Shown: positions 7,993 through 47,682, numbered from the stretch's first letter. The stretch: 64,000 bases of DNA from Chitinophagales bacterium (GCA_019694975.1 JAIBAY010000007.1:73720-137719); one strand, 5' to 3'. Made by a program: numbers and translations. The notes: a model not told the origin generated them from the letters alone.

Positions 7993-8328
7993 TCACGGAA
8001 TCAACTTCATCTTTCCCGGATTCTTTGATTTTATCAATGCAACCTTCCTGTCACGTTTAAACAGTTTAATCTCCTTCTCACGCCAGATCGCAGCAGTTAG
8101 GTACGGATAACATTCATAATATACCGGTTCATAACAAAAATATCTGCCGGCAAATGTTTTACGGTTTCCGCGGTTCTGCAAATGCTCTGACATCCTTCGC
8201 TTCAAATTATTTGTTACACCGGTGTAAAATGCAGTGCGGCCCGGATTAGATGTGATGTAAGTGCAATAGGGATTTATACAATCGCTTCTCATATACAAAA
8301 CCGATATGCAATTAATAAAATATAGCAA
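7993..8328 (-). CDS. stand-alone GIY-YIG nuclease family protein (likely start at Met13, ~8292)
   Basis: Motifs CTYITSN...FYTGVTNNLKRRMSEHLQ...REKEIK, i.e. the GIY-(x)-YIG / R / E core of the small UPF0213-type nucleases. Confidence 0.85.
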   Translation of the reverse strand: MLYFINCISVLYMRSDCINPYCTYITSNPGRTAFYTGVTNNLKRRMSEHLQNRGNRKTFAGRYFCYEPVYYECYPYLTAAIWREKEIKLFKRDRKVALIKSKNPGKMKLIP

Positions 8329-34129: not shown

Positions 34130-34620
34130 GTAATAAAAATTAAAGGATTGAAATGTAAAGTGGATGGTTGAAAGAAGGCGGGAAAGCAGCAGCGCATGAT
34201 GAAAGGCGGGAAAGCGTTACAGCAGCACTGCAACGATGCAGGCGGCTAAAACACGCAGATGACCATGCATGAAGAGGAGTAAAGGTTAACTTCATTGAAC
34301 TGTTTTACCTGGCTGTGATTGCTTGAAAAATGCATTCGTTAATGAATGCCGGTGTTTTAAAAGCCATCAAACGTAAACCTTTATTATGCTAAAAAAAATA
34401 CAATTCGGTGACACTTTCTTACCAATTCATGAATTAAAATGCTATGAATTTTGCATCATTTCATAGCTATAGAATAAAAAATGCGAATAATATGAGTTGC
34501 CAGCCATGGCTTACGGCGGATACGGAGCATGAGGGAATATTGTTATAGGAAGGGCGTGTGTCGTGGGTGGCTGTAATTGTAGATTGGTTGTTGATGGTGG
34601 ACTATGGATTGTTGAAAAAA
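34130..34620 (-). promoter_or_regulatory. ~490-bp A+T-rich upstream region of the giant gene with direct repeats and palindromes
   Basis: The direct repeat [AG]AAGGCGGGAAAGC occurs at ~34174 and ~34202. Palindromes are GCATTC-gttaat-GAATGC (~34332-34349), AATTCATGAATT (~34423-34434) and GCTATGAA-N11-TTCATAGC (~34441-34467). No promoter element could be assigned with confidence. Confidence 0.35.
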
Positions 34621-35262
34621 CTTACAATCAAGCGAATGACCTCAACAACCAACAAGTCATCCCGAACTTGTTTCGGGATCTTAATCTTAAAGATGCCGAA
34701 ATAAATTCGGCATGACGCTTCCTGCTGGTATAACGATGCTCACTGTTAACAGCGTCCTAAAACATTATCCAGTCTATCAAATGGTAATTGCAAAAGCTAC
34801 AGTCAGGCGAAAGACCTCCACCACCCATAAGTCATCCCGAACTTGTTTCGGGATCTTATATTGAAAGATGCCGAAATAAATCCGGCATGACGCTTCCTGC
34901 TGGTATAACGATGCTCACTGTTAACAGCGTTCTAAAACATTATCCAGTCTATCAAATGGAAATTGCAAAAGCTACAATCAGGCGAATGACCTCCACCACC
35001 CATAAGTCATCCCGAACTTGTTTCGGGATCTTATATTGAAAGATGCCGAAATAAATTCGGCATGACGCTTCCTGCTGGTATGACGATGCTCACTGTTAAC
35101 AGCGTCCTAAAACATTATCCAGTCTATCAAATGGTCATTGCAAAAGCTACAATCAAGCGAATGACCTCAACTACCTATAAGTCATCCCGAACTTGGTTCG
35201 GGATCTTTATACTGAAGATGCCGAAATAAATTCGGCATGACGCTACTTACTAGTACGACGCC
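34620..35262 (+). repeat. tandem array of 4 units (175-bp period) of a double-hairpin intergenic repeat (type A units)
   Basis: GTCATCCCGAACTTGTTTCGGGATC starts at ~34656, 34831, 35006 and 35181. Each is followed ~12-15 nt later by GATGCCGAAATAAATTCGGCATGAC and a conserved ~110-nt tail. Confidence 0.9.
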
Positions 35263-35306
35263 TAAAATTGATACTGATGCCATCTTAAATATATTTTAAC
35301 ATCTAA

Positions 35307-35645
35307 TCACAAATACTCGCTTTCCATATCGATCCTGAATTGCTCGATTTCATTAACACTAAACCAATCAAAAGCCAAGTCAGCTAAATCCTTATTAGTC
35401 TCTCTCACCAGGTTCCATTTCCATTCCGCATGCCAGTTTTTCAATTGCTTTTCCCTTCGTATTGCATCAGTCATGTTTTCGAATTTTTCAAAATGAACAA
35501 GGTCCGTAAGTTGGTACTGCGAGGCAAATACGGAACCAATGCCTGCCTTGTGTTCAAGCATCCTTCTTTCAAGATTATTGGTGACGCCGATGTAAAGCGT
35601 AGTTCTCTTGTAGTTGCTGATTATATAAACAGCAGGATATTTCAT
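35307..35645 (-). CDS. stand-alone GIY-YIG nuclease family protein embedded in the repeat array
   Basis: 112 aa with AVYIISNYKRTTLYIGVTNNLERRMLEHK...REKQLKNW, the GIY-YIG core. Confidence 0.88.
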   Translation of the reverse strand: MKYPAVYIISNYKRTTLYIGVTNNLERRMLEHKAGIGSVFASQYQLTDLVHFEKFENMTDAIRREKQLKNWHAEWKWNLVRETNKDLADLAFDWFSVNEIEQFRIDMESEYL

Positions 35646-35734
35646 AGAAAATATTGATGAATATTGAATGAAGATACAACTTAGTTTTTAGCATTTATTT
35701 GATGCGGGGCAATAGATCAAAAAGTTATTGAAGA

Positions 35735-36445
35735 TGCCGAAATAAATTCGGCATGACCACGGCCAGCGATACAATGACTTCCATCGGTATGACGACCGCC
35801 AGCGGTGTGACATTGTTCAATGGTAACACAGCCTTTAACTATCATAATCGCAATTCAAGAGTAATAGCTAAAACTGCAATCATGCGAATGACTTCAACAA
35901 CCTATAAGTCATCCCGAACTTGTTTCGGGATCTTTATACTAAAGATGCCGAAATAAATTCGGCATGACGCTTCTTGCTGGTATGACGACCGCCAGCGGTG
36001 TGACATTGTTCAATGGTAACACAGCCTTTAACCATCATAAGCGCAATTCAAGAGCAATAACTAAAACTGCAATCATGCGAATGACTTCAACAACCAACAA
36101 GTCATCCCGAACTTGTTTCGGGATCTTTTATTGAAGATGCCGAAATAAATCCGGCATGACCACGGCCAGCGATACAATGACTTCCAGCGGTATGACGACC
36201 GCCAGCAGTATGAAGCTGTTCACTGGTAACACAGCCTCAGACCATCATAATCGCAATTCAAGAGCAATAACTAAAACTGCAATCATGCGAATGAACTCAA
36301 CAACCAACAAGTCATCCCGAACTTGTTTCGGGATCTTTATACTGAAGATGCCGAAATAAATTCGGCATGACGGCCTCCATTAGCCTGACGGCCTCCATTG
36401 ACATTACGGCCTCCATTAGCATAACGGCCTTCACAGGCATGTTCG
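35735..36445 (+). repeat. array of 3 double-hairpin units (193-210-bp period, type B units) ending in an 18-bp micro-tandem tail
   Basis: H1 copies lie at ~35908, 36101 and 36311, and H2 copies at ~35733, 35943, 36134 and 36347. The tail at 36361-36440 is (GACGGCCTCCATTAGCCT)-like x4. Confidence 0.9.
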
Positions 36446-36545
36446 CAATAAGGCTTCCCTTGCGATTGAATTTATTCAACGGCTGAAGAAAGCATAAAAA
36501 ACATCAGATAACATCTGCCGGATGATGAGTGCCGAAAAAGCAAGC

Positions 36546-37532
36546 TTACCTTCCTTCGAGGATGCGAATGTAATTCGCCCGCTCATAGGCCGTCGGGTCG
36601 GCGATATACTGTTGACTCATAATACCCTTAAAGGAATGGATAGTGGGAAAGCCGCTTTCCTGCATCCAGGCATCAAGTGCATTATTGATGGTGCTGATGG
36701 AATCAATGCCGTTTTTGTATAAGGCCGATGCTGTCATGGCGACATCGGCGCCGGCCAGCAGGTATTTGATCACTTCCACAGCGCTCTGCACTCCGGTGGT
36801 CGCGGCCAGGGAAACAGGCACCCTTCCATACAGCATGCCCAGCCATAGCAGCGGCAGCCTTATCTCATTAGGTTCGCTGTATTGCAGGTTGTGCCGGATC
36901 TTGAGTTCGGAGATGTCGAAGTCGGGCTGGTAGAAGCGGTTAAAGAGCACAAGCGCATTGGCGCCGGCCTGCTGCAGCTTCATGGCCATGTGTCCCATGG
37001 AGCTGAAATAAGGGTTCAGCTTCACCGCCACCGGAATCCTCACCGCCGTTTTCACCATTTCCACAATATGCAGGTAACGGTGTTCCACCGAAGCCGCGGC
37101 CATGTTCACATCGCCTGGAATGAAGAAGATATTGATCTCCAGCGCATCAGCGCCGGCCTGTTCCATGTCGCGGGCATAGGTGATCCATCCTTCCGGCGTG
37201 ATGCCGTTGAGGCTGCCGATGACGGGTATGTCCACGCGCTCCTTCGCCTTGCGGATATGCTCCAGGTACTGATCGGTGCCGAAGTGGTATTCATCGAGAT
37301 CAGGGAAGAAGCCGGAGGCCTCGGCAAACGGATGGGTGGTGGCGCCTTTGATGGAATGATAATGCGCTGTTTCCTTTTTGATCTGTTCTTCGAACAGGGA
37401 AAACAGTACTACGGCCCCGGCGCCGGCATCTTCCATCTGCACGATGTTGCCGATCTCTTCCGAAAGGCTGCAAGCCGACACCACTACCGGTGAGGAGAGG
37501 GTCAGGCCCATGTAGTTTGTTAACAGGTTCAT
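36546..37532 (-). CDS. dihydroorotate dehydrogenase-like FMN (TIM-barrel) protein
   Basis: 328 aa with YMGLTLSSPVVVSAC, GAGAVVLFSLFEEQ, VIGSLNG and VAVKLNP, the class-1 DHOD / dihydropyrimidine-dehydrogenase domain-IV pattern. It lies 23 nt downstream of PFOR. Confidence 0.75.
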   Translation of the reverse strand: MNLLTNYMGLTLSSPVVVSACSLSEEIGNIVQMEDAGAGAVVLFSLFEEQIKKETAHYHSIKGATTHPFAEASGFFPDLDEYHFGTDQYLEHIRKAKERVDIPVIGSLNGITPEGWITYARDMEQAGADALEINIFFIPGDVNMAAASVEHRYLHIVEMVKTAVRIPVAVKLNPYFSSMGHMAMKLQQAGANALVLFNRFYQPDFDISELKIRHNLQYSEPNEIRLPLLWLGMLYGRVPVSLAATTGVQSAVEVIKYLLAGADVAMTASALYKNGIDSISTINNALDAWMQESGFPTIHSFKGIMSQQYIADPTAYERANYIRILEGR

Positions 37533-37555
37533 GGTGGTGTGTTATATGTTTTTGT

Positions 37556-40500
37556 TCAGGCTACAGGCACAAAATCACTGGCGCTCTTGGTGGCCAGCTC
37601 TTCATAATTCTTCCAGCGCAGGTTCACCATTTCCTGTGCCAGCGACATCAGCGAGGCCGCTTCTTCAGGGTTGGTGTGGGTGAGTACTTTGTAGCGTAAT
37701 TCGTTATAGGCAAATTCCTTCAGCGGTATCAGGGGCCGTGTGGAATCAAGTATGAAGGGGTTTTGCTTTTTTGTTCGCAGCACAGGATTATAGCGGAGCA
37801 ACGGCCAATAGCCGCTCGACACCGCCTTGCTTTGCTGCGACAAGCCATCTTTCAGATCATATCCATGGGCGATGCAATGGCTGTAGGCAAGTATCAGCGA
37901 AGGGCCATCGTAGGCCTCGGCTTCCCGCATGGCCAGCAGTGCCTGCTGCGGGTTGGCACCAAATGCAATGCGGGCCACGTATACATTGCCGTAAGAAATA
38001 GCCTGCAAGGCCAGATCCTTCTTGCCTCCCCGTTTGCCGGCAGCGGCAAACTTGGCCGTGGCGGCGGTAGGTGTGGCCTTTGAGCTTTGGCCACCCGTAT
38101 TGCTGTAAACCTCCGTATCCAGCACCAGGATGTTGATGTTTCTGCCGGTGGCCAGTGCATGATCGAGGCCGCCATAGCCGATATCATAAGCCCAGCCATC
38201 GCCGCCGACGAGCCACACGCTCCGGCGTACCAGCTGATCGGCCACCGAGAGCAGGTGGCTGGCGGTACTGCCTGGAATAGCAGCCAGCTTCACTTTCAAC
38301 TCCTGCACCCTGCTACGTTGCGCCACGATCTCCGACTCCTGCAATTGCGGAGCGCTGAGGAGGTCGTGTACCATGGTGGCACCGAGCTCAGGCTCGAGCT
38401 GTTTCAGCAGTTGCTCTGCCATCACCAGCTGCTGATCGGCTGTGATGCGCATGCCAAGCCCGAACTCCGCATTGTCTTCGAAAAGAGAGTTAGACCAGGC
38501 CGGCCCTTGCCCCTGGCTGTTGGTGGTCCATGGCGTGGTGGGCAGGTTACCACCATAGATGGAAGAGCAGCCGGTGGCATTGGCAACCAGCAGCCGGTCG
38601 CCAAACAATTGCGACAGCAGCTTCAGGTAAGGTGTTTCGCCGCAGCCGGCACAGGCACCGGAGAATTCAAAGAGCGGCTCCAAGAATTGCGCGCCATGCA
38701 CGGTGGAGAAATTGATGGTGGAGCGGTTGTTCCAGGGCAGCTTGTCAAAGAAGGCAATGTTCTCTTTCACCTGGCTGATGACCGGTTCTTTCTCCGCCAT
38801 GTTGATGGCTTTCAGTGAATGGTTGCCGGGTGCAGTGGCCGGACATACCTCCACGCAGAGGTTGCATCCGGTGCAATCTTCCGCATATACCTGCAGCGTA
38901 TATTTTGTTTCCGGGAAGCCGCGCGCATTGATCGGCGCCGACTGAAAAGATGCCGGTGAGCCTTCCAGTAAATCTGCATGATAGAACTTGGCGCGAATCA
39001 CGCTGTGCGGGCAGACATAGGCGCAGTTGCCGCACTGTATGCAGATGCCGGGCTCCCACACCGGAACAAGGTCGGAGATGTTTCTCTTTTCCCACCGCGT
39101 GGTGCCGCTTGGATAGGTTCCGTCGTGCGGCATCTTGCTGACGGGTAGGTCATCACCGTGACCCGACATCATCACAGCTGTAACCTCTTTCACAAAGTCC
39201 GGCGCATCGGCGGAAACCACAGCGTGCAGGCCGGCAGTAGCCGTGACCTTGTCAGGAACCGTCACCTCATAGAGATGCGCCAACGTGGCATCTACCGCCG
39301 CGAAATTCTGCTCTACCACGGCTTTTCCCTTTTTTGAATAGGTCTTTTCAATGGCATGTTTGATCTGCGCGATGGCTTCTTCCCTCGGCAGTACACCACT
39401 CAGCGCGAAGAAACAGGTTTGCATGATGGTATTGATCCGGCCACTCATGCCGGTGTCTCTTGCCACGGCGGTGGCATCTATTACGTAACATTTCAGTTTT
39501 TTGGTGATGATCTGCGACTGCACATTAGCCGGCAGGTAGTTCCAGACAGCTGCGGCATCATAAGGACTGTTCAGCAGAAAAGTGCCGCCGGACTTAATCA
39601 TCTCCAGCATCTCCACCTTCTCTACGAAGTTGAACTGATGGCAGGCGATGAAATCCGCTTTGCCGATGAGGTAAGGCGCTCGTATCGGCCGCGGCCCGAA
39701 GCGCAGATGGGAAACAGTGCGGGCGCCTGACTTCTTGGAGTCGTACACGAAATAGCCCTGTGCATACAGCGCGGTGTTTTCCCCGATGATTTTGATGGTA
39801 TTTTTGTTAGCCCCTACGGTTCCATCGGCGCCAAGACCAAAAAACAAAGCCTGCCGCCATTGCGACTCATCGAGTGAGAAGGCGGGATCATACGGCAGAC
39901 TCGTATGGGTGACATCGTCGTTGATGCCAATGGTAAAATGATTTTTAAGCAGGGCATTGCCGGTTGACTGTGCGGCTTTCTTCAATTCATCAAATACACC
40001 TTTCGCCATGGCCGGTGTGAACTCTTTGGATGACAACCCATAACGGCCGCCAATAACCTGCGGTATCTTTTTCAGCTTCCCTTGCTGCAGCCCTTCCACG
40101 AATGCCGACAGCACATCCTGGTACATCGGCTCGCCCGAGGCACCTGACTCCTTGGTACGGTCGAGCACGGCTACGGCTTCAACAGATGCCGGGAGCGCAT
40201 TTAAGAGGTGCGTTACGGAGAAAGGCCGGTATAACCGTACCTGGATGACACCGGTTTTTTCGCCGGAAGCGTTCAGTGCATCCACGGTCTCCGCCACCGT
40301 TTCACCACCCGAACCCATGATGATGATGACCTGCTTTGCATCAGCGGCACCGCTGTATTGAAAGAGTTCATAATGCCGTCCCGCCACTTTTTCAAAATCA
40401 CGCATCACCGCTTCCACTATAGCAGGCGTGCTGTCGTAGTAGCCGTTGACCGTTTCGCGGCTCTGAAAATATACATCGGGATTCTGTGCGGTGCCGCGGA

Positions 40501-41152
40501 TAAAAGGATGGTCGGGGTTGAGTGCGCGGCTGCGGTGTGCCAGAACGAACTCATCGTCAATCATCGACCTGATTGCTTCATCGGGCAGCAACTCCACCTT
40601 ATTCACCTCATGCGAGGTGCGGAAGCCGTCAAAAAAATGAATGAAAGGAATCCTCGAACGCAAAGTTGCCGCCTGCGCAATTAGCGCGAAATCATGTGCT
40701 TCCTGCACGCCGGCAGCAGCCAGCATGGCAAAGCCCGTGGTGCGTGCCGCCATCACATCCTGATGGTCGCCGAAGATGGACAAGCCCTGCGCCGCGAGCG
40801 AACGTGCCGCCACATGAAAAACACAGGCAGTGAGTTCTCCGGCAATCTTATACATGTTGGGCAACATCAGCATCAGCCCCTGTGAAGCCGTGAAAGTGGT
40901 GGTGAGCGATCCTGTCTGCAGGGCGCCATGCACCGTGCCGGCAGCACCGCCTTCACTCTGCATCTCGATGATATCAGGGACATTGCCCCAAATATTTTTA
41001 ATGCCTCTGGCGCTCCATTCATCAGCCAGCTCGGCCATGGTGGAAGAGGGTGTGATGGGATAGATGGCGCAAACCTCATTCACACGATACGCCACGTACG
41101 CCGCGGCTTCATTGCCATCAATCATGGCTATATTTTTATTACTTGCTGACAT
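37556..41152 (-). CDS. nifJ: pyruvate:ferredoxin (flavodoxin) oxidoreductase, single-chain type
   Basis: 1,198 aa with an N-terminal MIDGNEAAAYVAYRVNEVCAIYPITPSS and an internal 2x[4Fe-4S] motif pair (CIQCGNCAYVCP, CTGCNLCVEVCP). It also has the TPP-binding GGDGWAYDIGYGGLDH and LVLDTEVYSNTGGQ motifs. Confidence 0.95.
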   Translation of the reverse strand: MSASNKNIAMIDGNEAAAYVAYRVNEVCAIYPITPSSTMAELADEWSARGIKNIWGNVPDIIEMQSEGGAAGTVHGALQTGSLTTTFTASQGLMLMLPNMYKIAGELTACVFHVAARSLAAQGLSIFGDHQDVMAARTTGFAMLAAAGVQEAHDFALIAQAATLRSRIPFIHFFDGFRTSHEVNKVELLPDEAIRSMIDDEFVLAHRSRALNPDHPFIRGTAQNPDVYFQSRETVNGYYDSTPAIVEAVMRDFEKVAGRHYELFQYSGAADAKQVIIIMGSGGETVAETVDALNASGEKTGVIQVRLYRPFSVTHLLNALPASVEAVAVLDRTKESGASGEPMYQDVLSAFVEGLQQGKLKKIPQVIGGRYGLSSKEFTPAMAKGVFDELKKAAQSTGNALLKNHFTIGINDDVTHTSLPYDPAFSLDESQWRQALFFGLGADGTVGANKNTIKIIGENTALYAQGYFVYDSKKSGARTVSHLRFGPRPIRAPYLIGKADFIACHQFNFVEKVEMLEMIKSGGTFLLNSPYDAAAVWNYLPANVQSQIITKKLKCYVIDATAVARDTGMSGRINTIMQTCFFALSGVLPREEAIAQIKHAIEKTYSKKGKAVVEQNFAAVDATLAHLYEVTVPDKVTATAGLHAVVSADAPDFVKEVTAVMMSGHGDDLPVSKMPHDGTYPSGTTRWEKRNISDLVPVWEPGICIQCGNCAYVCPHSVIRAKFYHADLLEGSPASFQSAPINARGFPETKYTLQVYAEDCTGCNLCVEVCPATAPGNHSLKAINMAEKEPVISQVKENIAFFDKLPWNNRSTINFSTVHGAQFLEPLFEFSGACAGCGETPYLKLLSQLFGDRLLVANATGCSSIYGGNLPTTPWTTNSQGQGPAWSNSLFEDNAEFGLGMRITADQQLVMAEQLLKQLEPELGATMVHDLLSAPQLQESEIVAQRSRVQELKVKLAAIPGSTASHLLSVADQLVRRSVWLVGGDGWAYDIGYGGLDHALATGRNINILVLDTEVYSNTGGQSSKATPTAATAKFAAAGKRGGKKDLALQAISYGNVYVARIAFGANPQQALLAMREAEAYDGPSLILAYSHCIAHGYDLKDGLSQQSKAVSSGYWPLLRYNPVLRTKKQNPFILDSTRPLIPLKEFAYNELRYKVLTHTNPEEAASLMSLAQEMVNLRWKNYEELATKSASDFVPVA

Positions 41153-41156
41153 GGTT

Positions 41157-42899
41157 TCAGAGTTTGACTGGTTCCGGGATCATTTCAATCGCATGACATG
41201 GGCATTGTTCGTAGCAAACGGCACAGCCGGTACAGAGGCTGTAGTTGAATTTATACCGCTTGCCGGCGCCGAGTTTGATAATGGCATCTTCCGGACAGGC
41301 GCCAAAGCATCCATCGCACTCGAAGCAATTGCCGCAGCTCAGGCATCGTTGCGCTTCATAACGGGCTTCCGGCTCAGTGAGCCCGCTGATGACCTCATCG
41401 AAATTCCTCACCGCCACTTTTGGCGGCAGTTTTTGCTGTGCGATCAGCGGCGCCTCCGTTTTGTACCACATCTGCAGCTTGCGATAGCCGGCCGTCGGGT
41501 GCTTCTCCCCTTTCACGAAGGTTTCGTTGCGCAGGTAAGCATCCAGGTACTTCGCCGCCTTTTTTCCATGGCCAATGGCAATAGTGGCGCTGCGCGTTTC
41601 ACCCGGCAGCATATCACCGCCGGCAAAAATTCCGCGGTAGCCGGTCATCCTTTCCGCATCAATCACCACGGTTCCGTCTTCTCTCAGCTGAATGCCATTC
41701 AAAGGCTGCAGATAGCCGGTTTCAGCTTCCTGCCCCATGGCAACAATGACCAGGTCGGCCGGCAAGGTTTCCATTTCACCGGTGCCCACCGCTTTTCCCT
41801 TTTCAACCTTCATCTGTTCAAGGGTAAGCTTCTTCTTTTCGATATTGGAAATACTCCTCAGCAGTTGCACTTCAACCCCTTCGGCTAGTGCGTCGTCGGT
41901 TTCATAGTCATAGGCCGGCATCAGTTTTTTATCGCCCGGAAACAGGACCATCGCCTCCGAATGAAACCGTTTGAGGATACGGGCGAGATAGAGTGCCAGC
42001 TTTCCGCCGCCATAGACAGCGATCTTTTTATTATGAAAAGGCAGGCTGTCCGTTGCTGCTTCCTGAAAGAAGGAGAAGGCATCCGTTATGCGGACCGATC
42101 CGTCTGTCGGGATGCGTGCCCCATTGATATGTTGCGCGCCGGTGGAAAGGTAAACAGCATCAAAACGGCCGTCCTGTTTTTCCTTCAGCAGGTCTTTTAT
42201 TTCATGATTCAGGTGGAATTTCACACCCAGCTTTTCAATGCGTTCAGTTTCCGCATCGAGTATATTTTTAGGCAACCGGTATTCGGGAATTCCTGTTCTC
42301 AGCAATCCGCCCAACAGCGGACCGCGCTCAAAAACTTCTACTTCATAACCCATGCGGGCGAGGTGATAGGCAGCAGATAATCCGCCCGGACCGGAACCAA
42401 CCACCATCACACGTTTGCCCGCAGGAACAGACAGTGTATTGATCGGCCATTGCAGCCGGATCGCTTCATCGCCGATGAACCGCTCTACGGCATGAATATT
42501 CACGGTAGTATCGATATGGTTGCGATTACAACCGGTTTCGCAGGGCTTCACACAAATACGGCCCATGATGGCAGGAAAAGGATTGTCGGCTACGAGGCTT
42601 TGAAAAGCCGCGAAGTAATCACCGGACTGCGCGAGGGAAAGCCATGCCTGAATGTTTTCACCGGCCGGACAGGCGCTGTTGCAGGGTGGCATGAAGTCGA
42701 GGTAAATGGGCCGGCGGTTTCGCAATGGCCCGGTTCCCTGTGGATGACCGGCCATGTCGATGGGTTTCGTGATATCGGTGGTCGACACGATGGTATTATT
42801 TATGGATACTGATGAATGAATGCGAACGAAACTGAAAATTCCCGGTTTTGGCCAGAAAATAGCTTGACAATTGTCATACGACGCATTGATTGTAATCAT
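41157..42899 (-). CDS. GltD-like NAD(P)H-dependent Fe-S flavoprotein with a C-terminal 2x[4Fe-4S] ferredoxin domain (start possibly at Met49, ~42755)
   Basis: PPCNSACPAGENIQ...GRICVKPCETGCNR (GltD-type clusters), VVGSGPGGLSAAYHLARMG (FAD), and C-terminal CLSCGNCFECDGCFGACP plus CTGCAVCYEQCP. Its stop is 4 nt upstream of the PFOR start. Confidence 0.85.
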   Translation of the reverse strand: MITINASYDNCQAIFWPKPGIFSFVRIHSSVSINNTIVSTTDITKPIDMAGHPQGTGPLRNRRPIYLDFMPPCNSACPAGENIQAWLSLAQSGDYFAAFQSLVADNPFPAIMGRICVKPCETGCNRNHIDTTVNIHAVERFIGDEAIRLQWPINTLSVPAGKRVMVVGSGPGGLSAAYHLARMGYEVEVFERGPLLGGLLRTGIPEYRLPKNILDAETERIEKLGVKFHLNHEIKDLLKEKQDGRFDAVYLSTGAQHINGARIPTDGSVRITDAFSFFQEAATDSLPFHNKKIAVYGGGKLALYLARILKRFHSEAMVLFPGDKKLMPAYDYETDDALAEGVEVQLLRSISNIEKKKLTLEQMKVEKGKAVGTGEMETLPADLVIVAMGQEAETGYLQPLNGIQLREDGTVVIDAERMTGYRGIFAGGDMLPGETRSATIAIGHGKKAAKYLDAYLRNETFVKGEKHPTAGYRKLQMWYKTEAPLIAQQKLPPKVAVRNFDEVISGLTEPEARYEAQRCLSCGNCFECDGCFGACPEDAIIKLGAGKRYKFNYSLCTGCAVCYEQCPCHAIEMIPEPVKL

Positions 42900-43248
42900 G
42901 TTTCTTTTTCAAATACGGAAAGACTGCAACAGCTGATAGCAAGGCAGTGCCCATCATTTCCCGGCTGCCATAATCCTGCTATTATTATATTTAAAGCAGG
43001 AGACCGGTGATGCATGATAACTGAGTAAGAGCTGTATCCTTTTTCCCCGGCAAACTTCAGATGACCTCGTTACACATTTTTTCACCTGCACCACTGACAC
43101 TGGCCCCGGTTATTAATCCTGCAGGCTTCATCCAACCTGAGAGGAAGGTGATGGAAGCAGTACAAGCAGTTGCCGGCGAAGATTCATGTGCTCCGGTTGC
43201 ATGGCGTCAGCCTGCGTTCAGGCACAGCAGACACGATAGAACCACACT

Positions 43249-44094
43249 ATGAAATACGAGATTTCCAAAACCGCCCGTGCATTAATATTTTTTCCCGTGC
43301 TGCTGCTGAGCATGCCGCATGTAATGGCACTAATGGCAAGCGGACACGATGCAGCAAAGCCGGCTAGAAAAATAACCGTCACCTTTAAGATTGATCTGAC
43401 GGGAGAAATGAAAAACGTGAAAGACCCTGCTTCCGCAGGCATCCGTGGTAATGTGGCGCCATTGTCGTGGGATAAAACTTATGCGATGACAGATGCTGAC
43501 CATGATAATATGTATGAAGCCACCATAACATTTGAATCCGGTGCGAATGCATTGCAACTGGAATACAAATTCATACATGATCAGTCGGTTTGGGAAACCA
43601 GTGATAACCGCATCCTGTCAACAACAGCTGTCAGCATTATATTACCTGTTGCAAAATGGAATGACGGGCCCGCTGTGGTGATGAGTGAGCATGCGAAGGA
43701 TTCTATCGCACAAAGTAAACTGTATCATGAAATCGCTGCTATGGATAGTGTGTTGTTCGCGGCTTATAACAGGCAGGATATCGAAAAGATCAAAACCATG
43801 TTTGATGAAGACCTTGAATTTTATCATGATCAGGGAGGCCTGACTACTTATGATCAGAATATCGAAAGTTTACAAACCCTGTTCGCGAAGGGATACAACG
43901 TACAACGCAGGCTTTTGAAAGAAACGCTGGAAGTTTTCCCGGTGAAAGACTATGGTGCGATGGAGATCGGGGCGCATGAGTTTTGCCATGTTGAAAACGG
44001 CAAGATGGACTGCGGCACTTTTAAATTCCTCATGATATGGCGTTGGAAAGACGGAGCATGGAAAATTACCAGGGTGGCGAGTTATGATCACTGA
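43249..44094 (+). CDS. secreted protein with an N-terminal CBM20-like module and a C-terminal SnoaL/DUF4440-like (NTF2-fold) domain
   Basis: Signal peptide ALIFFPVLLLSMPHVMA. ITVTFKIDL...GNVAPLSWDK...EYKFIHDQSVWETSDNR resembles starch-binding CBM20. LYHEIAAMDSVLFAAYN...MIWRWKDGAWKITRVASYDH resembles DUF4440. Confidence 0.55.
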   Translation: MKYEISKTARALIFFPVLLLSMPHVMALMASGHDAAKPARKITVTFKIDLTGEMKNVKDPASAGIRGNVAPLSWDKTYAMTDADHDNMYEATITFESGANALQLEYKFIHDQSVWETSDNRILSTTAVSIILPVAKWNDGPAVVMSEHAKDSIAQSKLYHEIAAMDSVLFAAYNRQDIEKIKTMFDEDLEFYHDQGGLTTYDQNIESLQTLFAKGYNVQRRLLKETLEVFPVKDYGAMEIGAHEFCHVENGKMDCGTFKFLMIWRWKDGAWKITRVASYDH

Positions 44095-44197
44095 TTGTAG
44101 GTTGTGTTGATGGCATTATTGCAGCCGAAATTGAAATTTTGTTGGCTAACTGCTTCCGCTGCATAAAATCAACGGCGATTGAAGTCCATTTGTTGAC

Positions 44198-45170
44198 ATG
44201 CGTGCGAAAGACGTCATGGCTGTGAAGGGTGTAATGCCAATGAATGGCGTCCTGCCATTGAATGGCGTCATCCCGGTGAATGACGTCATGCCAATGAATG
44301 GCGTTATGCCGGTAAAGGCGTCATGCCGAATTTATTTCGGCATCTTTCAATATAAGATCCCGAAACAAGTTCGGGATGACTTATAGGTTGTTGAAGTCAT
44401 TAGCTTGATTGTAGCTTTTGCAATTACCACTTGATAGACTGGATAATGTTTTAGGACGCTGTTAACAGTGTTCATCGTTATACCAGCAGAAAGCGTCATG
44501 CCGAATTTATTTCGGCATCTTTCAATATAAAATCCCGAAACAAGTTCGGGATGACTTATCGGTTGTTGAAGTCATTAGCTTGATTGCAGTTTTAGTTATT
44601 GCTCTTGAATTGCGATTATGATGGTCTAAGGCTGTGTTACCAGTGAACAGCTTCATACTGCTGGCGGTCGTTATACCAGCAGGAAGCGTCATGCCGAATT
44701 TATTTCGGCATCTTAATACTAAAGATCCCGAAACAAGTTCGGGATGACTTATTGGTGGTTGAAGTCATTAGCTTGATTGCAGTTTTAGTTATTGCTCTTG
44801 AATTGCGATTATGATGGTCTAAGGCTGTGTTACCAGTGAACAGCGTCACACCGCTGGCGGTCGTCATACCAGCAGGAAGCGTCATGCCGAATTTATTTCG
44901 GCATCTTTAGTATAAAGATCCCGAAACAAGTTCGGGATGACTTATAGGTTGTTGAAGTCATTAGCTTGATTGCAGTTTTAGTTATTGCTCTTGAATCGCG
45001 ATTATGATGGTCTAAGGCTGTGTTACCATTGAACAATGTTACACCGCTGGCGGTCGTCATACCAGCAGGAAGCGTCATGCCGAATTTATTTCGGCATCTT
45101 TCAATATAAGATCCCGAAACAAGTTCGGGATGACTTATTGGTGGTAGAGGTCATTCTCCTGATTGCAATA
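44198..45170 (-). repeat. array of 5 double-hairpin units in inverted orientation relative to 34620-36445, preceded by an 18-bp micro-tandem tail
   Basis: GTCATGCCGAATTTATTTCGGCATC...GATCCCGAAACAAGTTCGGGATGAC (reverse complement of the left-array unit) starts at ~44320, 44495, 44698, 44881 and 45074. The tail at 44198-44320 is ~6 x 18 bp (ATGCCAATGAATGGCGTC-like). The ORF-track peptides at 44700..44885(-) and 44893..45078(-) nearly equal those at 35753..35956(+) and 36156..36359(+). Confidence 0.9.
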
Positions 45171-45333
45171 TTTGTTAATGCATTGGAATAGCAACTATGC
45201 CCGCAAAACGCAGTTACGCCGTTATCCATTGCCACAGGCTTCTACCAACGGCAATTGATGCCATACAGACGAAAAGAAGTATGTTATCCTGCAATCATCA
45301 ACCACAGACTTCGATTTTTCCCTTCTCTCCAGG

Positions 45334-47682
45334 TCACTCCAGATATTCCACCACAATCGCGATATCACTGTTACGGCCCTTATCATCCGTGCAGGAAATC
45401 TTCACCCTTCCGGCCTCGGGCGTGAAAAAGATTTTATCATGCACTCCGGCTGTGGCATAAAACCTGTTATTAATATACCAATACACCGTTTTCACTTCAT
45501 TGTCGGCGTGGCAGGTAAGCTGCAGCTGTTGCTGTTCATCTTTCTCCAGCAGGTATTGCAGCCCGTCAGTGGGCGATGTGATGACCGGTGCATTCTGCGT
45601 GTAGATGCGGCTGCAGGCCGGATTATGCGGCGGCACCTTTTCATAGGGCAGTTTCTGAAACTCGTAGTAGGCAACCACTTCGGGCAGCAGGTTCGGGTAC
45701 CATTTTTTCTTATAGCCGTTCTCAGGCAGGCAGTTCCTGCAGTAGGAAATCGCTGAATCTGCGGAAACAAAAACCTCTTTCAGGTGATTGCATTTTTGCA
45801 TCGTGGATATGCCGGGCATAAAATAATCCATCACCTGTTCGTTGCAAAACTCATTGGGCGGCAAACCCGACTCAGCGCAGACATACCGGAAATCAAGTGA
45901 TGACGGCATCTTAAACCAATCATTGGCGGAGTTATACGATAAGGTGTTAAATAAATCAAAGAGCAACGGAGTCGCAATGTCGGCACCGGTCAGTTCGGGA
46001 ATACCATTGCCGGAAAAATTACCAACCCAAACTCCGATCGTGAATTCCTTATTGTAACCAATGCTCCATGCATCACGCCTGCCGTACGAGGTGCCGGTTT
46101 TCCATGCCACTTTTGGCAGGTGCATGCTGCTTTCATAATTGTTGGGCAAATCAGGACGAAGGTGTTGCGTCAGGATTTCTGTTGTCATGTATGCCGATGC
46201 ACCGGTCAGCAACCGGAAGGAATCCGCCCTTGCGTTTTGCTGTGTCCATACAAGTTTTCTCCAGATACCCTGATTGGCGAAGCAGGCATAGAGGTTTGTC
46301 AACTCTTCCAGTTTCACGCCACAGCCACCCAATATCACCGACAGGCCGAGTTTATCTTTGTCTGCTGCAACCTGCCTGAATCCGGCCAGCTTCAGCTGCG
46401 CGATGAATGACTGCACACCGAGCAACTCCAGCATTTTCACCGAAGGCACATTCAGCGAATTGGCCAGTGCCGTTTCCACTGTGATGTTGCCGCGAAACTG
46501 CTTGTCGTAATTCTGCGGCAGGTATCCATGAAAGTTCACCGGCACATCGGCGATCACTGAATGCGGCGTAATGATTCCCCTGTCAAACCCTAATGCATAG
46601 AGCAATGGTTTCAGTGTGCTGCCCGGCGACCGTATGGCACGCACGCCATCCACCTGTCCGTGATCACTGCTGTTGTTAAAATCCGCAGAGCCAACATAAG
46701 CTTCCACACTGTTGTCTTTGTTGTTTATCACCAGCACGGCACAATTGGTGATGCCCATGTAATGAATGCGCTGCACATAATTGAAGGCTATGTTCTCCGC
46801 CTTTTCCTGCTTCTTCTGATCGATGCAGGAATGTATGATCGGTTTATCGTGGTACATCTGCGCCAGGCGAAGCGACAGGTGCGGCGCCAGCGATGGCACA
46901 TTATGACGCACATCATTCATGGGTTCGAGCAAGGCATCTTCAATTTCTGCCTGCGGAAAAATCTTATCCTTCGCGAAGCGGCGCAGCCATTTATTCCTTT
47001 CCTCAATGATTAACGCATTGTCTCTGCCGATGATGAGCGATGAAGGCCGGTTGGGAATGATGGTGAGTACTACGGTTTGTGCAAGACTCATGTAATCGGG
47101 CGACTGCTGAAAGTAAATCAAGGACGCACTCTTTACGCCTTCGATGTTACTGCCATAAGGAACAAGATTGAGATAGAGTTGCAGTATTTCATCTTTGCTG
47201 AACTGCCACTCGAGTTGAAATGCCCTGCCTATCTCCACCAGTTTATTTGAATAGGTCCGCTCTTTGGGCTCCAGCATGCGTGCCACCTGCATCGTAATGG
47301 TTGATGCGCCTGATGTTTTTTTTGATTGCAGCAGGTTGTTGAACATCGCCCGCACAATAGCCACGGGATTAATACCAGGATGATAGTAGAAATATTTATC
47401 CTCTTTGTAAATGATGGCTTTCTTCAAAACGGGTGTTATTTCCTGCAGCTCGGTTTTCATCCGCCATTTCTCGTCGCTGCTCAGATATGCATGTAACACA
47501 CTGCCATCGGCGGCGGTGATGATCTGCGAATAGTGCAGTTTAATACGCAACGGGAATAACGCATTCAAGAGCAGGAATAGCAACAACAATCCGCATGCTG
47601 TATAAACCGAACGGCGCATCCAATTTTTATGGAAGTACCGGTGAAACAGCTTTTTTATCCAGTCAAATGAACGCTCCAACAT
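45334..47682 (-). CDS. pbpC: penicillin-binding protein 1C (bifunctional GT51 transglycosylase / transpeptidase)
   Basis: 782 aa with GT51 motifs EDKYFYYHPGINP and GASTITMQVAR. Transpeptidase motifs are SPGSTLKP (SxxK), SLN and KTGTS. It has a C-terminal PBP1C-type beta domain. Confidence 0.9.
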   Translation of the reverse strand: MLERSFDWIKKLFHRYFHKNWMRRSVYTACGLLLLFLLLNALFPLRIKLHYSQIITAADGSVLHAYLSSDEKWRMKTELQEITPVLKKAIIYKEDKYFYYHPGINPVAIVRAMFNNLLQSKKTSGASTITMQVARMLEPKERTYSNKLVEIGRAFQLEWQFSKDEILQLYLNLVPYGSNIEGVKSASLIYFQQSPDYMSLAQTVVLTIIPNRPSSLIIGRDNALIIEERNKWLRRFAKDKIFPQAEIEDALLEPMNDVRHNVPSLAPHLSLRLAQMYHDKPIIHSCIDQKKQEKAENIAFNYVQRIHYMGITNCAVLVINNKDNSVEAYVGSADFNNSSDHGQVDGVRAIRSPGSTLKPLLYALGFDRGIITPHSVIADVPVNFHGYLPQNYDKQFRGNITVETALANSLNVPSVKMLELLGVQSFIAQLKLAGFRQVAADKDKLGLSVILGGCGVKLEELTNLYACFANQGIWRKLVWTQQNARADSFRLLTGASAYMTTEILTQHLRPDLPNNYESSMHLPKVAWKTGTSYGRRDAWSIGYNKEFTIGVWVGNFSGNGIPELTGADIATPLLFDLFNTLSYNSANDWFKMPSSLDFRYVCAESGLPPNEFCNEQVMDYFMPGISTMQKCNHLKEVFVSADSAISYCRNCLPENGYKKKWYPNLLPEVVAYYEFQKLPYEKVPPHNPACSRIYTQNAPVITSPTDGLQYLLEKDEQQQLQLTCHADNEVKTVYWYINNRFYATAGVHDKIFFTPEAGRVKISCTDDKGRNSDIAIVVEYLE

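Follow-up and report, generated by a model that had tools for sequence, protein, structure and literature searches.

Inverted mosaic hairpin arrays, one carrying a predicted SsnA-like GIY-YIG nuclease gene, around an apparently ancestral PFOR cluster of a Chitinophagaceae genome

The DNA studied here is a 64,000-nt window (contig C11:73720-137719 of genome G000, a 4.3-Mb assembly of 14 contigs) from a Chitinophagales bacterium. The best matches of its pyruvate:ferredoxin/flavodoxin oxidoreductase (PFOR) place the source genome in the Chitinophagaceae, and the metagenome runs containing window sequence are from wastewater and activated sludge. Positions are counted from the first nucleotide of the window. 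Two tandem arrays are located on both sides of a gene cluster that comprises a DHOD-like gene, PFOR, a GltD-like gene and a DUF4440 gene. An initial annotation had described these arrays as one inverted family with micro-repeats at their inner edges, and had regarded the segment between them as invertible or mobilisable. The arrays (34617-36437 and 44206-45236) are real, belong to one family and are inverted, with units of 175, 193 and 211 nt; the left one contains a gene for a predicted single-domain GIY-YIG nuclease. The features of the arrays are as follows.

34617-35241, plus strand: outer part of the left array; degenerate partial unit L1 and 175-nt type-A units L2-L4, each ending in the doublet GTCATCCCGAACTTGTTTCGGGATC...GATGCCGAAATAAATTCGGCATGAC.
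35242-35757, minus strand: nuclease cassette; the start of a type-A unit, truncated, is followed by the SsnA-like gene, and a hairpin at 35733-35757 closes the cassette; a family hairpin stands on either side.
35307-35645, minus strand: predicted SsnA-like single-domain GIY-YIG nuclease, 112 aa (Pfam GIY-YIG, 2.1e-15).
35758-36371, plus strand: inner part of the left array; three type-B units, L6 and L8 of 211 nt and L7 of 192 nt, with lengths in 18-nt steps.
36372-36437, plus strand: left inner tail; about four 18-nt micro-repeats, GGCCTCCATTAGCMTRAC-like, prolonging the 3' tail of the last hairpin; no predicted structure (z = 0.44).
44206-44319, minus strand: inner tail of the right array, with about 6.5 18-nt micro-repeats; its homology to the left tail extends to the common end CCTTCACAGSCATG...TTCGCA.
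44320-45073, minus strand: right array, listed inwards; three 193-nt type-B units (R2, R3, R4) and the 175-nt type-A unit R5; the block R2-R3 is collinear with L6-L7.
45074-45236, minus strand: outermost unit of the right array, degenerate type-B R1 with an intact hairpin doublet (from repeat pairs and unit alignment).

For the dissection into units, each array was cut after every second hairpin, and the right array was read as its reverse complement. The order in the left array is a decayed partial A unit (L1), three A units, the 516-nt GIY-YIG cassette, B', B, B' and the tail; in the right array it is a decayed B unit (R1), three B units, one A unit and the tail. Tandem Repeats Finder detected periods of 175 nt at 34623-35244 (3.6 copies, 93%), of 193 nt at 35777-36372 and of 193 nt at 44475-45181 (3.7 copies, 93%). 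It also found the 18-nt micro-tandems on the inner edges of both arrays (36365-36430 and 44212-44327), in agreement with the initial annotation. The units of both arrays are directed inwards, from the flank to the tail; each array is just 3' of an outward-facing gene end and has the same polarity relative to that gene.

Each unit consists of a spacer body, degenerate 18-nt micro-repeats and a pair of hairpins, which resemble repetitive extragenic palindromic (REP) sequences and are arranged tail to tail. The pair is formed by GTCAT-CCCGAA-CTTGT-TTCGGG-ATC, an 11-13-nt A+T-rich linker and GAT-GCCGAA-ATAAA-TTCGGC-ATGAC; in other words, two 8-bp hairpins are inverted to each other with their GTC tags outward. 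As single-stranded DNA, the doublet is predicted to fold at -14.8 kcal/mol (z = -5.0), and the micro-repeat tail to be unstructured. Unit lengths differ by multiples of 18 nt, since the 5' part of the body is a degenerate 18-nt periodic sequence continuing the ATGAC tail of the hairpin. The possibility that the units are coding was rejected: 175, 193 and 211 nt are all 3n+1, and the nuclease gene is the sole open reading frame (ORF) of at least 100 aa in the arrays. A search of Rfam at E<=1 over 33.5-46 kb gave no match.

The repeat search linked 34612-36372 to 44318-45236 by 33 inverted pairs. The longest arms are 35786-36128 versus 44721-45063 (343 nt, 94%) and 35786-36135 versus 44521-44870 (350 nt, 91%). 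The long shared stretches noticed before far exceed what chance would give: exact inverted matches are as long as 87, 85 and 67 nt, with 44 of at least 30 nt, whereas in 200 shuffles the longest match was 6.9 nt on average and 13 nt at most. The 79-nt example given in the initial annotation is in unit L8, and its reverse complement on the right side is found as exact runs of 47 and 43 nt. Type-B units are 85-93% identical across the two sides versus 88-94% within one array, and type-A units are 90-93% identical across sides. L6-L7 is collinear with R2-R3 over the 343-nt arm. This means that a multi-unit block, not merely a single unit, is shared.

The inner tails have their last bases in common, and the outermost units are decayed, of type A on the left and of type B on the right. 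The variant AAGCTAATGACTTC is present in all four full right-hand units, of both types, where the left-hand units have GCG; this indicates homogenisation within the right array. Other variants tie specific left and right units, such as CAGCAGTATGAAGCTGTTCACTGG in L8 and R4. This pattern of variants is a mosaic that requires exchange of sequence between the arrays. Type A precedes type B on the left and follows it on the right. A reciprocal layout of this kind is the outcome expected from one crossover between inverted arrays; gene conversion can give the same result. It should be mentioned that L4 and L5 show a patchy transition from A to B. Splitting of one array by a single inversion was ruled out by the homologous inner tails and inner boundaries and by the ancestral orientation of the segment.

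Two local details of the units were also observed. Apart from one mismatch, the A+T-rich linker of R3 (44713-44725), CTTTAGTATTAAG, equals in reverse complement the linker CTTTATACTAAAG of R2 (44906-44918) and L6 (35932-35944). This comparison suggests a micro-inversion of the linker between the two inverted hairpins. The borders of the nuclease cassette (35242-35306 and 35646-35757) consist of the truncated type-A start GCTACTTACTAGTACGACG..CCTAAAA..ATACTGATGCC and the closing full hairpin preceded by TTATTGAAGATGCC. Owing to this unit start and TTATTGAAGATGCC, GATGCC is found at both borders, and the borders seem compatible with insertion into a hairpin.

The nuclease gene is directly bracketed by the family hairpins at 35217-35241 and 35733-35757. 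The Pfam GIY-YIG domain covers residues 5-76 of the predicted protein, and the sole further Pfam match is the overlapping, related T5orf172. SsnA of Neisseria meningitidis is a 94-aa single-domain GIY-YIG protein (CDD cd10448; Chenal et al. 2025, Nat Commun, PMC11893778). In an alignment of 13 sequences, Tyr7, Tyr18 and Glu65 of the present protein are invariant. These are one residue off the catalytic Tyr6, Tyr17 and Glu64 of SsnA, when numbering is compared with the mutants of that paper rather than with an aligned SsnA sequence. By analogy, the 112-aa protein would have nuclease activity on single-stranded DNA.

At E<=1e-15, 1110 homologues were retrieved from the database. Very short contigs carry many of the top-scoring ones, which is what one expects when a gene lies within repeats. 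The homologue of the congener G001 (64% identity) is inside a 1.6-kb cluster of 18 family hairpins, and at either end of the gene a hairpin is no more than about 20 nt away. Four more homologues (59-64% identity) from unrelated longer contigs have GTCA-YCCTGAA-N5-TTCAGGRT hairpins 15-150 nt from the gene, in four of four cases. Two other GIY-YIG paralogues in the genome (31-41% identity) have no family hairpins nearby, which indicates that the association with hairpins is specific to the clade of the array-embedded gene.

Further observations were made around the homologues and paralogues. The homologue P0020 (L127:2350-3260, a 6.2-Mb genome contig) has a doublet upstream; downstream, ATCCTGAATCAGGTTCAGGATGAC hairpins, six or more in number, recur about every 50 nt as an array, and a further doublet is present. 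Here, independently, a nuclease gene is again located within an array of its hairpins. The homologue P0009, together with its upstream hairpin (L131:2463-2848, JBPNOV010000023.1), is located between hsdR-like and hsdM-like genes of a type I restriction-modification operon. One of the paralogues is in the window itself (8011-8262, minus strand, 41% identity) and shows neither a family hairpin nor another strong palindrome within about 400 nt.

The hairpins of the arrays are part of a family of about 126 copies on 11 contigs of the genome; their intergenic location was examined for the arrays and the neighbours of these. The general form is (N)GTC-AT-S-CCGAA-N5-TTCGG-S-AT-C, with an 8-bp stem, a 5-nt loop and the tail CTT. 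NGTC is directly upstream in 116 of the 126 hairpins, and C directly follows the palindrome (tails CTT, CTG or CTC) in about 106 of 115 scored. Among the tag tetranucleotides CGTC occurs 35 times, GGTC 38, AGTC 34 and TGTC 9; GTC alone is fixed. The hairpin doublet is also carried by a MITE-like form, about 125 nt long and bounded by terminal inverted repeats that match perfectly over 16 bp (AGAAGCTATCTCAAAA...TTTTGAGATAGCTTCT); at least nine dispersed copies of this form were found (C10:539210, C10:348674, C10:343150, C5:578620, C5:204262, C3:781588, C1:5246, C7:140079 and C5:567757 of G000). The arrays of the window use the hairpin core of this element without its terminal repeats. The congeners G001, G004, G006 and G007 have the hairpin core, and G003 is without it.

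Full array units were found nowhere else in the genome than at these two loci. The spacer bodies gave no match in 40 relatives, where the hairpin core alone was matched; the spacer body is the fast-evolving part of the unit. Other arrays of the genome, with different bodies, follow the same logic of doublet and micro-repeat (C5:22278-23704, C9:73257-74766 and C9:87741 to the contig end). Four arrays of the genome adjoin genes for a giant adhesin, two surface proteins with the tail of the type IX secretion system (T9SS) and a porin.

A RAYT/REPIN origin of the family was rejected: none of the three Y1_Tnp-like genes in the genome has family hairpins within 3 kb. Two identical genes for a 180-aa RAYT/IS200-like Y1 transposase (C14:456082-456309 and C14:460854-461081) are 4.8 kb apart, and each is near the palindrome CGGGTTTACTGACAAACCCG, which is unrelated to the GTC-tagged hairpins.

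One of the other arrays bears on the assembly. C9:87741-89440, which reaches the contig end, and C11:1-200, about 73.7 kb upstream of the window start, are the same hairpin array with a period of 332 nt. As both contig ends are inside one array, the two contigs are probably adjacent, and arrays of this kind probably also explain the break between them. In this array, 21-nt micro-repeats copy one hairpin arm, and the array adjoins the 5' end of a T9SS surface-protein gene.

The genes enclosed by the two arrays are as follows.

36546-37532, minus strand: DHOD-like gene, last of the PFOR transcription unit (Pfam DHO_dh; 89% identical in G003).
37556-41152, minus strand: PFOR, 1198 aa (Pfam POR_N, POR, EKR, TPP_enzyme_C; 90% identical in G003).
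41157-42899, minus strand: GltD-like flavoprotein with Fe-S domain, first gene of the unit (Pfam Pyr_redox_2, Fer4_20).
43249-44094, plus strand: DUF4440-domain protein (Pfam DUF4440).

Pfam confirmed the DHO_dh-like, PFOR, GltD-like and DUF4440 genes named in the initial annotation, but not CBM20, for which no match was obtained at E<=0.001. Judging from the gene layout alone, the region 42900-43248 is probably a divergent promoter region inside the bracketed segment.

The closest congener, G003, has the giant gene, DHOD, PFOR, GltD, DUF4440, PBP1C and DUF5686 in the order and orientation of the window. Its spacers at both array sites contain no array and no hairpin, and are 650 and 245 nt long versus 2417 and 1240 nt in the window. 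On the left side, homology to G003 ends at 34552 and restarts at 36550; on the right side, it ends at the DUF4440 stop codon and restarts at the PBP1C stop codon. Protein identity to G003 is 71-90% for the bracketed genes and 84-87% for the flanking genes. Relative to PBP1C, the order and orientation of DUF4440, GltD, PFOR and DHOD are conserved in G001 and G006 too, with no hairpins there, and G001 keeps DUF5686 as well. On this comparison of gene order, the PFOR cluster is evidently ancestral and vertically inherited, with its present orientation ancestral too, and the arrays are evidently recent. The PFOR orthologue of G007 (G007:C11:382500-385943) matches residues 1-1149 only, has three in-frame stops (TGA, TAG and TAA) and is 39 kb from PBP1C. 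It may be a pseudogene.

These results bear directly on the suggestion that the arrays are the terminal repeats of a composite element that carried the PFOR cluster to this site. The layout, with inverted repeats around a block of genes and a nuclease gene in one arm, invites such a reading. However, it is contradicted by G003, which holds the cluster between the same neighbours in the same order and orientation without arrays, and by the order kept in G001 and G006. The comparison of synteny in relatives thus gave the very result that the initial annotation had named as arguing against a composite element. In addition, the identities of the bracketed genes to G003 are in keeping with the flanking-gene range, no transposase or integrase is in or beside the arrays (ORFs of at least 100 aa, Pfam), and the full-unit family occupies no other locus of the genome. 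The composite element is regarded as refuted, and its probability as negligible. An artefact of assembly, in which one array was duplicated or misplaced and no bracket exists in the cell, is equally improbable. Repeats of 1-1.8 kb are prone to misassembly, and related arrays terminate other contigs of the same assembly (the C9 end and the C11 start). Against this, contigs of four metagenome runs from two studies matched the junctions of array and unique sequence without mismatch (33000-34670, 36343-40882, 40853-44347 and 45116-47000), and independent contigs of 569-571 nt from three runs of one study matched the junction of the nuclease cassette (35213-35783); all five unique-to-array junctions are mismatch-free in independent contigs, four of them in two studies. 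The longest contig with the inner genes, found by look-ups with the DHOD-like and DUF4440 proteins, which returned array-bounded contigs only, is 8005 nt and corresponds exactly to 36343-44347. Moreover, the gene order agrees with that of G003, and the two arrays differ in unit order, in their tails and at about 6% of positions, so that a single collapsed sequence is excluded.

It is more difficult to judge whether the PFOR segment actively inverts, so that both orientations are kept at detectable frequency and units are shuffled between the arrays. This reading may hold alongside the explanation preferred below; on balance it seems rather doubtful. RecA recombination usually needs about 25-30 bp of identity. 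The perfect inverted runs described above are far above this length, and the arrays are an adequate substrate for homologous inversion, as had been claimed. It is plausible that RecA-type recombination could invert the 8.0-kb segment. The reciprocal arrangement of units, including the decayed outermost ones, would result if two ancestral arrays, one of A units and one of B units, had undergone a crossover, and identity between the arrays equals that within them (88-94%). On the other hand, gene conversion without crossover accounts for the mosaic equally well, and L4 and L5 leave no single clean breakpoint. The orientation is now the same as in G003, G001 and G006, which allows at most an even number of fixed inversions. 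For detection of both orientations, contigs of the four metagenome runs were compared over 33-47 kb; no long-read run (Nanopore or PacBio) was found, and JGI metagenome contigs, scanned twice with exact patterns, gave no match. The alternative junctions are in no read or contig, though none could show them: these are short-read contigs only, and all end inside the arrays, at 34670, 36343, 44347 and 45116. The orientation of the segment should therefore count as resting on long reads only. No recombinase gene was found between 32 and 48 kb (ORFs, Pfam). If the promoters are where the layout suggests, inversion would move both transcription units intact, without change of the linkage between promoter and gene. 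Because the promoters are probably inside the segment and no recombinase is nearby, inversion would be a by-product rather than a switch. Less probable still is a role of the arrays in transcription, as stacked bidirectional terminators, mRNA-stabilising 3' structures or tandem small-RNA genes downstream of two outward-facing units. Both arrays are just 3' of a gene end (DHOD at 36546, DUF4440 at 44094) with equal polarity to the gene, terminator-like hairpins on the two strands are more frequent than expected (10 and 6 sites versus 2.2 and 1.2), and REPs are often transcribed 3' elements (PMC3733652). However, the T tracts are weak (CTTATATT), Rfam gave no match, the spacer bodies are not conserved even within the genus, G003 has no arrays at either site, a further family array is next to the 5' end of its neighbouring gene, and the metatranscriptome runs contain none of the sampled words of the window.

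The explanation we prefer, and consider likely, is that the arrays are lineage-specific intergenic mosaic arrays with an SsnA-type nuclease and NTS/SRM-like hairpins, not the ends of a mobile element, and that the PFOR cluster between them is ancestral. The hairpins would be the Chitinophagaceae counterpart of the NTS/SRM motifs that SsnA-type nucleases recognise in single-stranded DNA. The arrays may have grown by slippage or unequal exchange, as is suggested by the 18-nt steps in unit length and by the homogenisation of some variants within a single array. An inverted copy of a multi-unit block might then have arisen in another intergenic spacer, at a distance of about 8 kb, and later exchange of sequence between the copies would have led to the mosaic of A and B units. 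Growth, copying and exchange would all have followed the split from the nearest relative, and the PFOR cluster seems merely to have ended up between the arrays.

Several points weigh against this explanation. The published degenerate SRM pattern, HGTCWYN(0-2)YYVSBRHN(0-5)WNVSBRGN(0-2)RNCYNB, has 13 matches genome-wide but none in the arrays; the count for contig C11 is 0, versus 0.8 in shuffles. G004, G006 and G007 have the hairpins and no close homologue of this nuclease, G004 and G006 being incomplete, fragmented drafts and G007 consisting of 10 contigs with 93% completeness. The five homologue contexts (G001 and the four others) were picked for long contigs and are not a random sample. The best structure match in the PDB is weak (UPF0213, 1ywl, E = 1.9e-4), and NCBIfam gave no match above the cut-off. 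SsnA was compared by its published description, so that membership of the Ssn family is well supported by context and residues, not proven. The inverted copying of several units is explained by no observed intermediate, and the metatranscriptome runs lend no support to transcription or activity of the locus.

A bolder version would join the nuclease and the arrays in one process. Cutting of single-stranded DNA at the hairpins during replication or repair might cause template switching, which in turn would generate the micro-repeats, expand the units and copy inverted blocks nearby; brackets of array, genes and array might then act as recombination insulators or inversion modules for the locus inside, a role not known to have been described in this phylum. 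We regard this version as improbable. If it were true, the nuclease would be an enzyme that propagates hairpin repeats, comparable to RAYTs but with GIY-YIG chemistry.

The preferred explanation places a puzzling repeat in the recently defined system of Ssn nucleases and hairpins, and would extend that system to a Chitinophagaceae genome from activated sludge. The hairpin variant is missed by the published pattern, which means that surveys based on it undercount the family. The locus is a natural test case, with a nuclease gene in its own array, an inverted array 8 kb away and a close relative with neither, and could serve to study the growth and spread of such arrays and their effect on recombination, be it to promote or to restrain it. 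As a practical matter, short-read contigs break at these arrays.

Among known systems, inversions between inverted repeats (rRNA operons, IS copies) and programmed invertible segments resemble the locus in having two inverted homologies a few kb apart with long perfect matches. Unlike programmed segments, the locus has no site-specific recombinase and, by gene layout, no promoter or coding segment is split. A closer likeness is seen with the CGTC-tagged REPs, which have 8-9-bp stems starting with AT, 4-5-nt loops and 3-nt tails, occur in Bacteroidetes among other phyla and have no dedicated transposase (Di Nocera et al. 2013, PMC3733652). The present hairpins share the 8-bp stem starting with AT, the 5-nt loop, the 3-nt unpaired tail, the formation of dimers and the host phylum, and the RAYT genes of the genome are not flanked by them. 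In contrast, GTC only is conserved here, the tags of the dimers point outward, and long-period tandem arrays are described as rare among those REPs (PMC3733652).

The NIMEs of Neisseria and the BIMEs of Escherichia coli, which are clusters of REPs, are similar in another respect: they are intergenic arrays in which variable spacers alternate with short conserved palindromes, their number and position are lineage-specific, they are often near surface-protein genes, and they have been proposed as substrates of recombination. In the genome paper of N. meningitidis Z2491, NIMEs are reportedly described as RS units separated by dRS3 repeats. The units here differ in being longer and more regular, in true tandem at 90-97% identity with a pair of hairpins each, and two arrays with common spacer bodies form an inverted pair around one gene cluster. 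The dRS3 repeats are the CGTC-1 REP family (PMC3733652) and are also NTS (PMC11893778).

The SsnA/NTS (SRM) system gives the closest comparison. SsnA binds the NTS hairpin CGTCAT-TCCCGCG...CGCGGGA-ATC as single-stranded DNA only and cuts a few nucleotides upstream; cleavage depends most on the three bases upstream of the palindrome, and binding on the C that follows it. At least one such motif is present in 71% of the regions around SsnA homologues, and NTS clusters surround genes, often for surface proteins, and lower transformation by NTS-containing DNA (PMC11893778). The present locus shares a single-domain GIY-YIG protein of about 100 aa with Tyr, Tyr and Glu at the same spacing, hairpin repeats on both sides of its gene (as in NTS-ssnA-NTS), GTC(AT) directly before and C directly after the palindrome, and a hundred-odd intergenic copies clustered around genes, several for surface proteins. 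The four arrays with such neighbours described above echo the NTS clusters near surface-protein genes, although this sample is small. Differences are found in the stem sequence, in the lack of a match to the published pattern, in the tail-to-tail doublets within tandem units of 175-211 nt with 18-nt micro-repeats, and in the host, a member of the Chitinophagaceae for which natural competence is not known. On these comparisons, the structure seems best filed as a Bacteroidota system of Ssn nuclease and hairpin repeats, organised as NIME/BIME-like mosaic arrays, with long regular units, 18-nt micro-repeats, a pattern-missed hairpin variant and an inverted pair of arrays around a housekeeping cluster as its local peculiarities.

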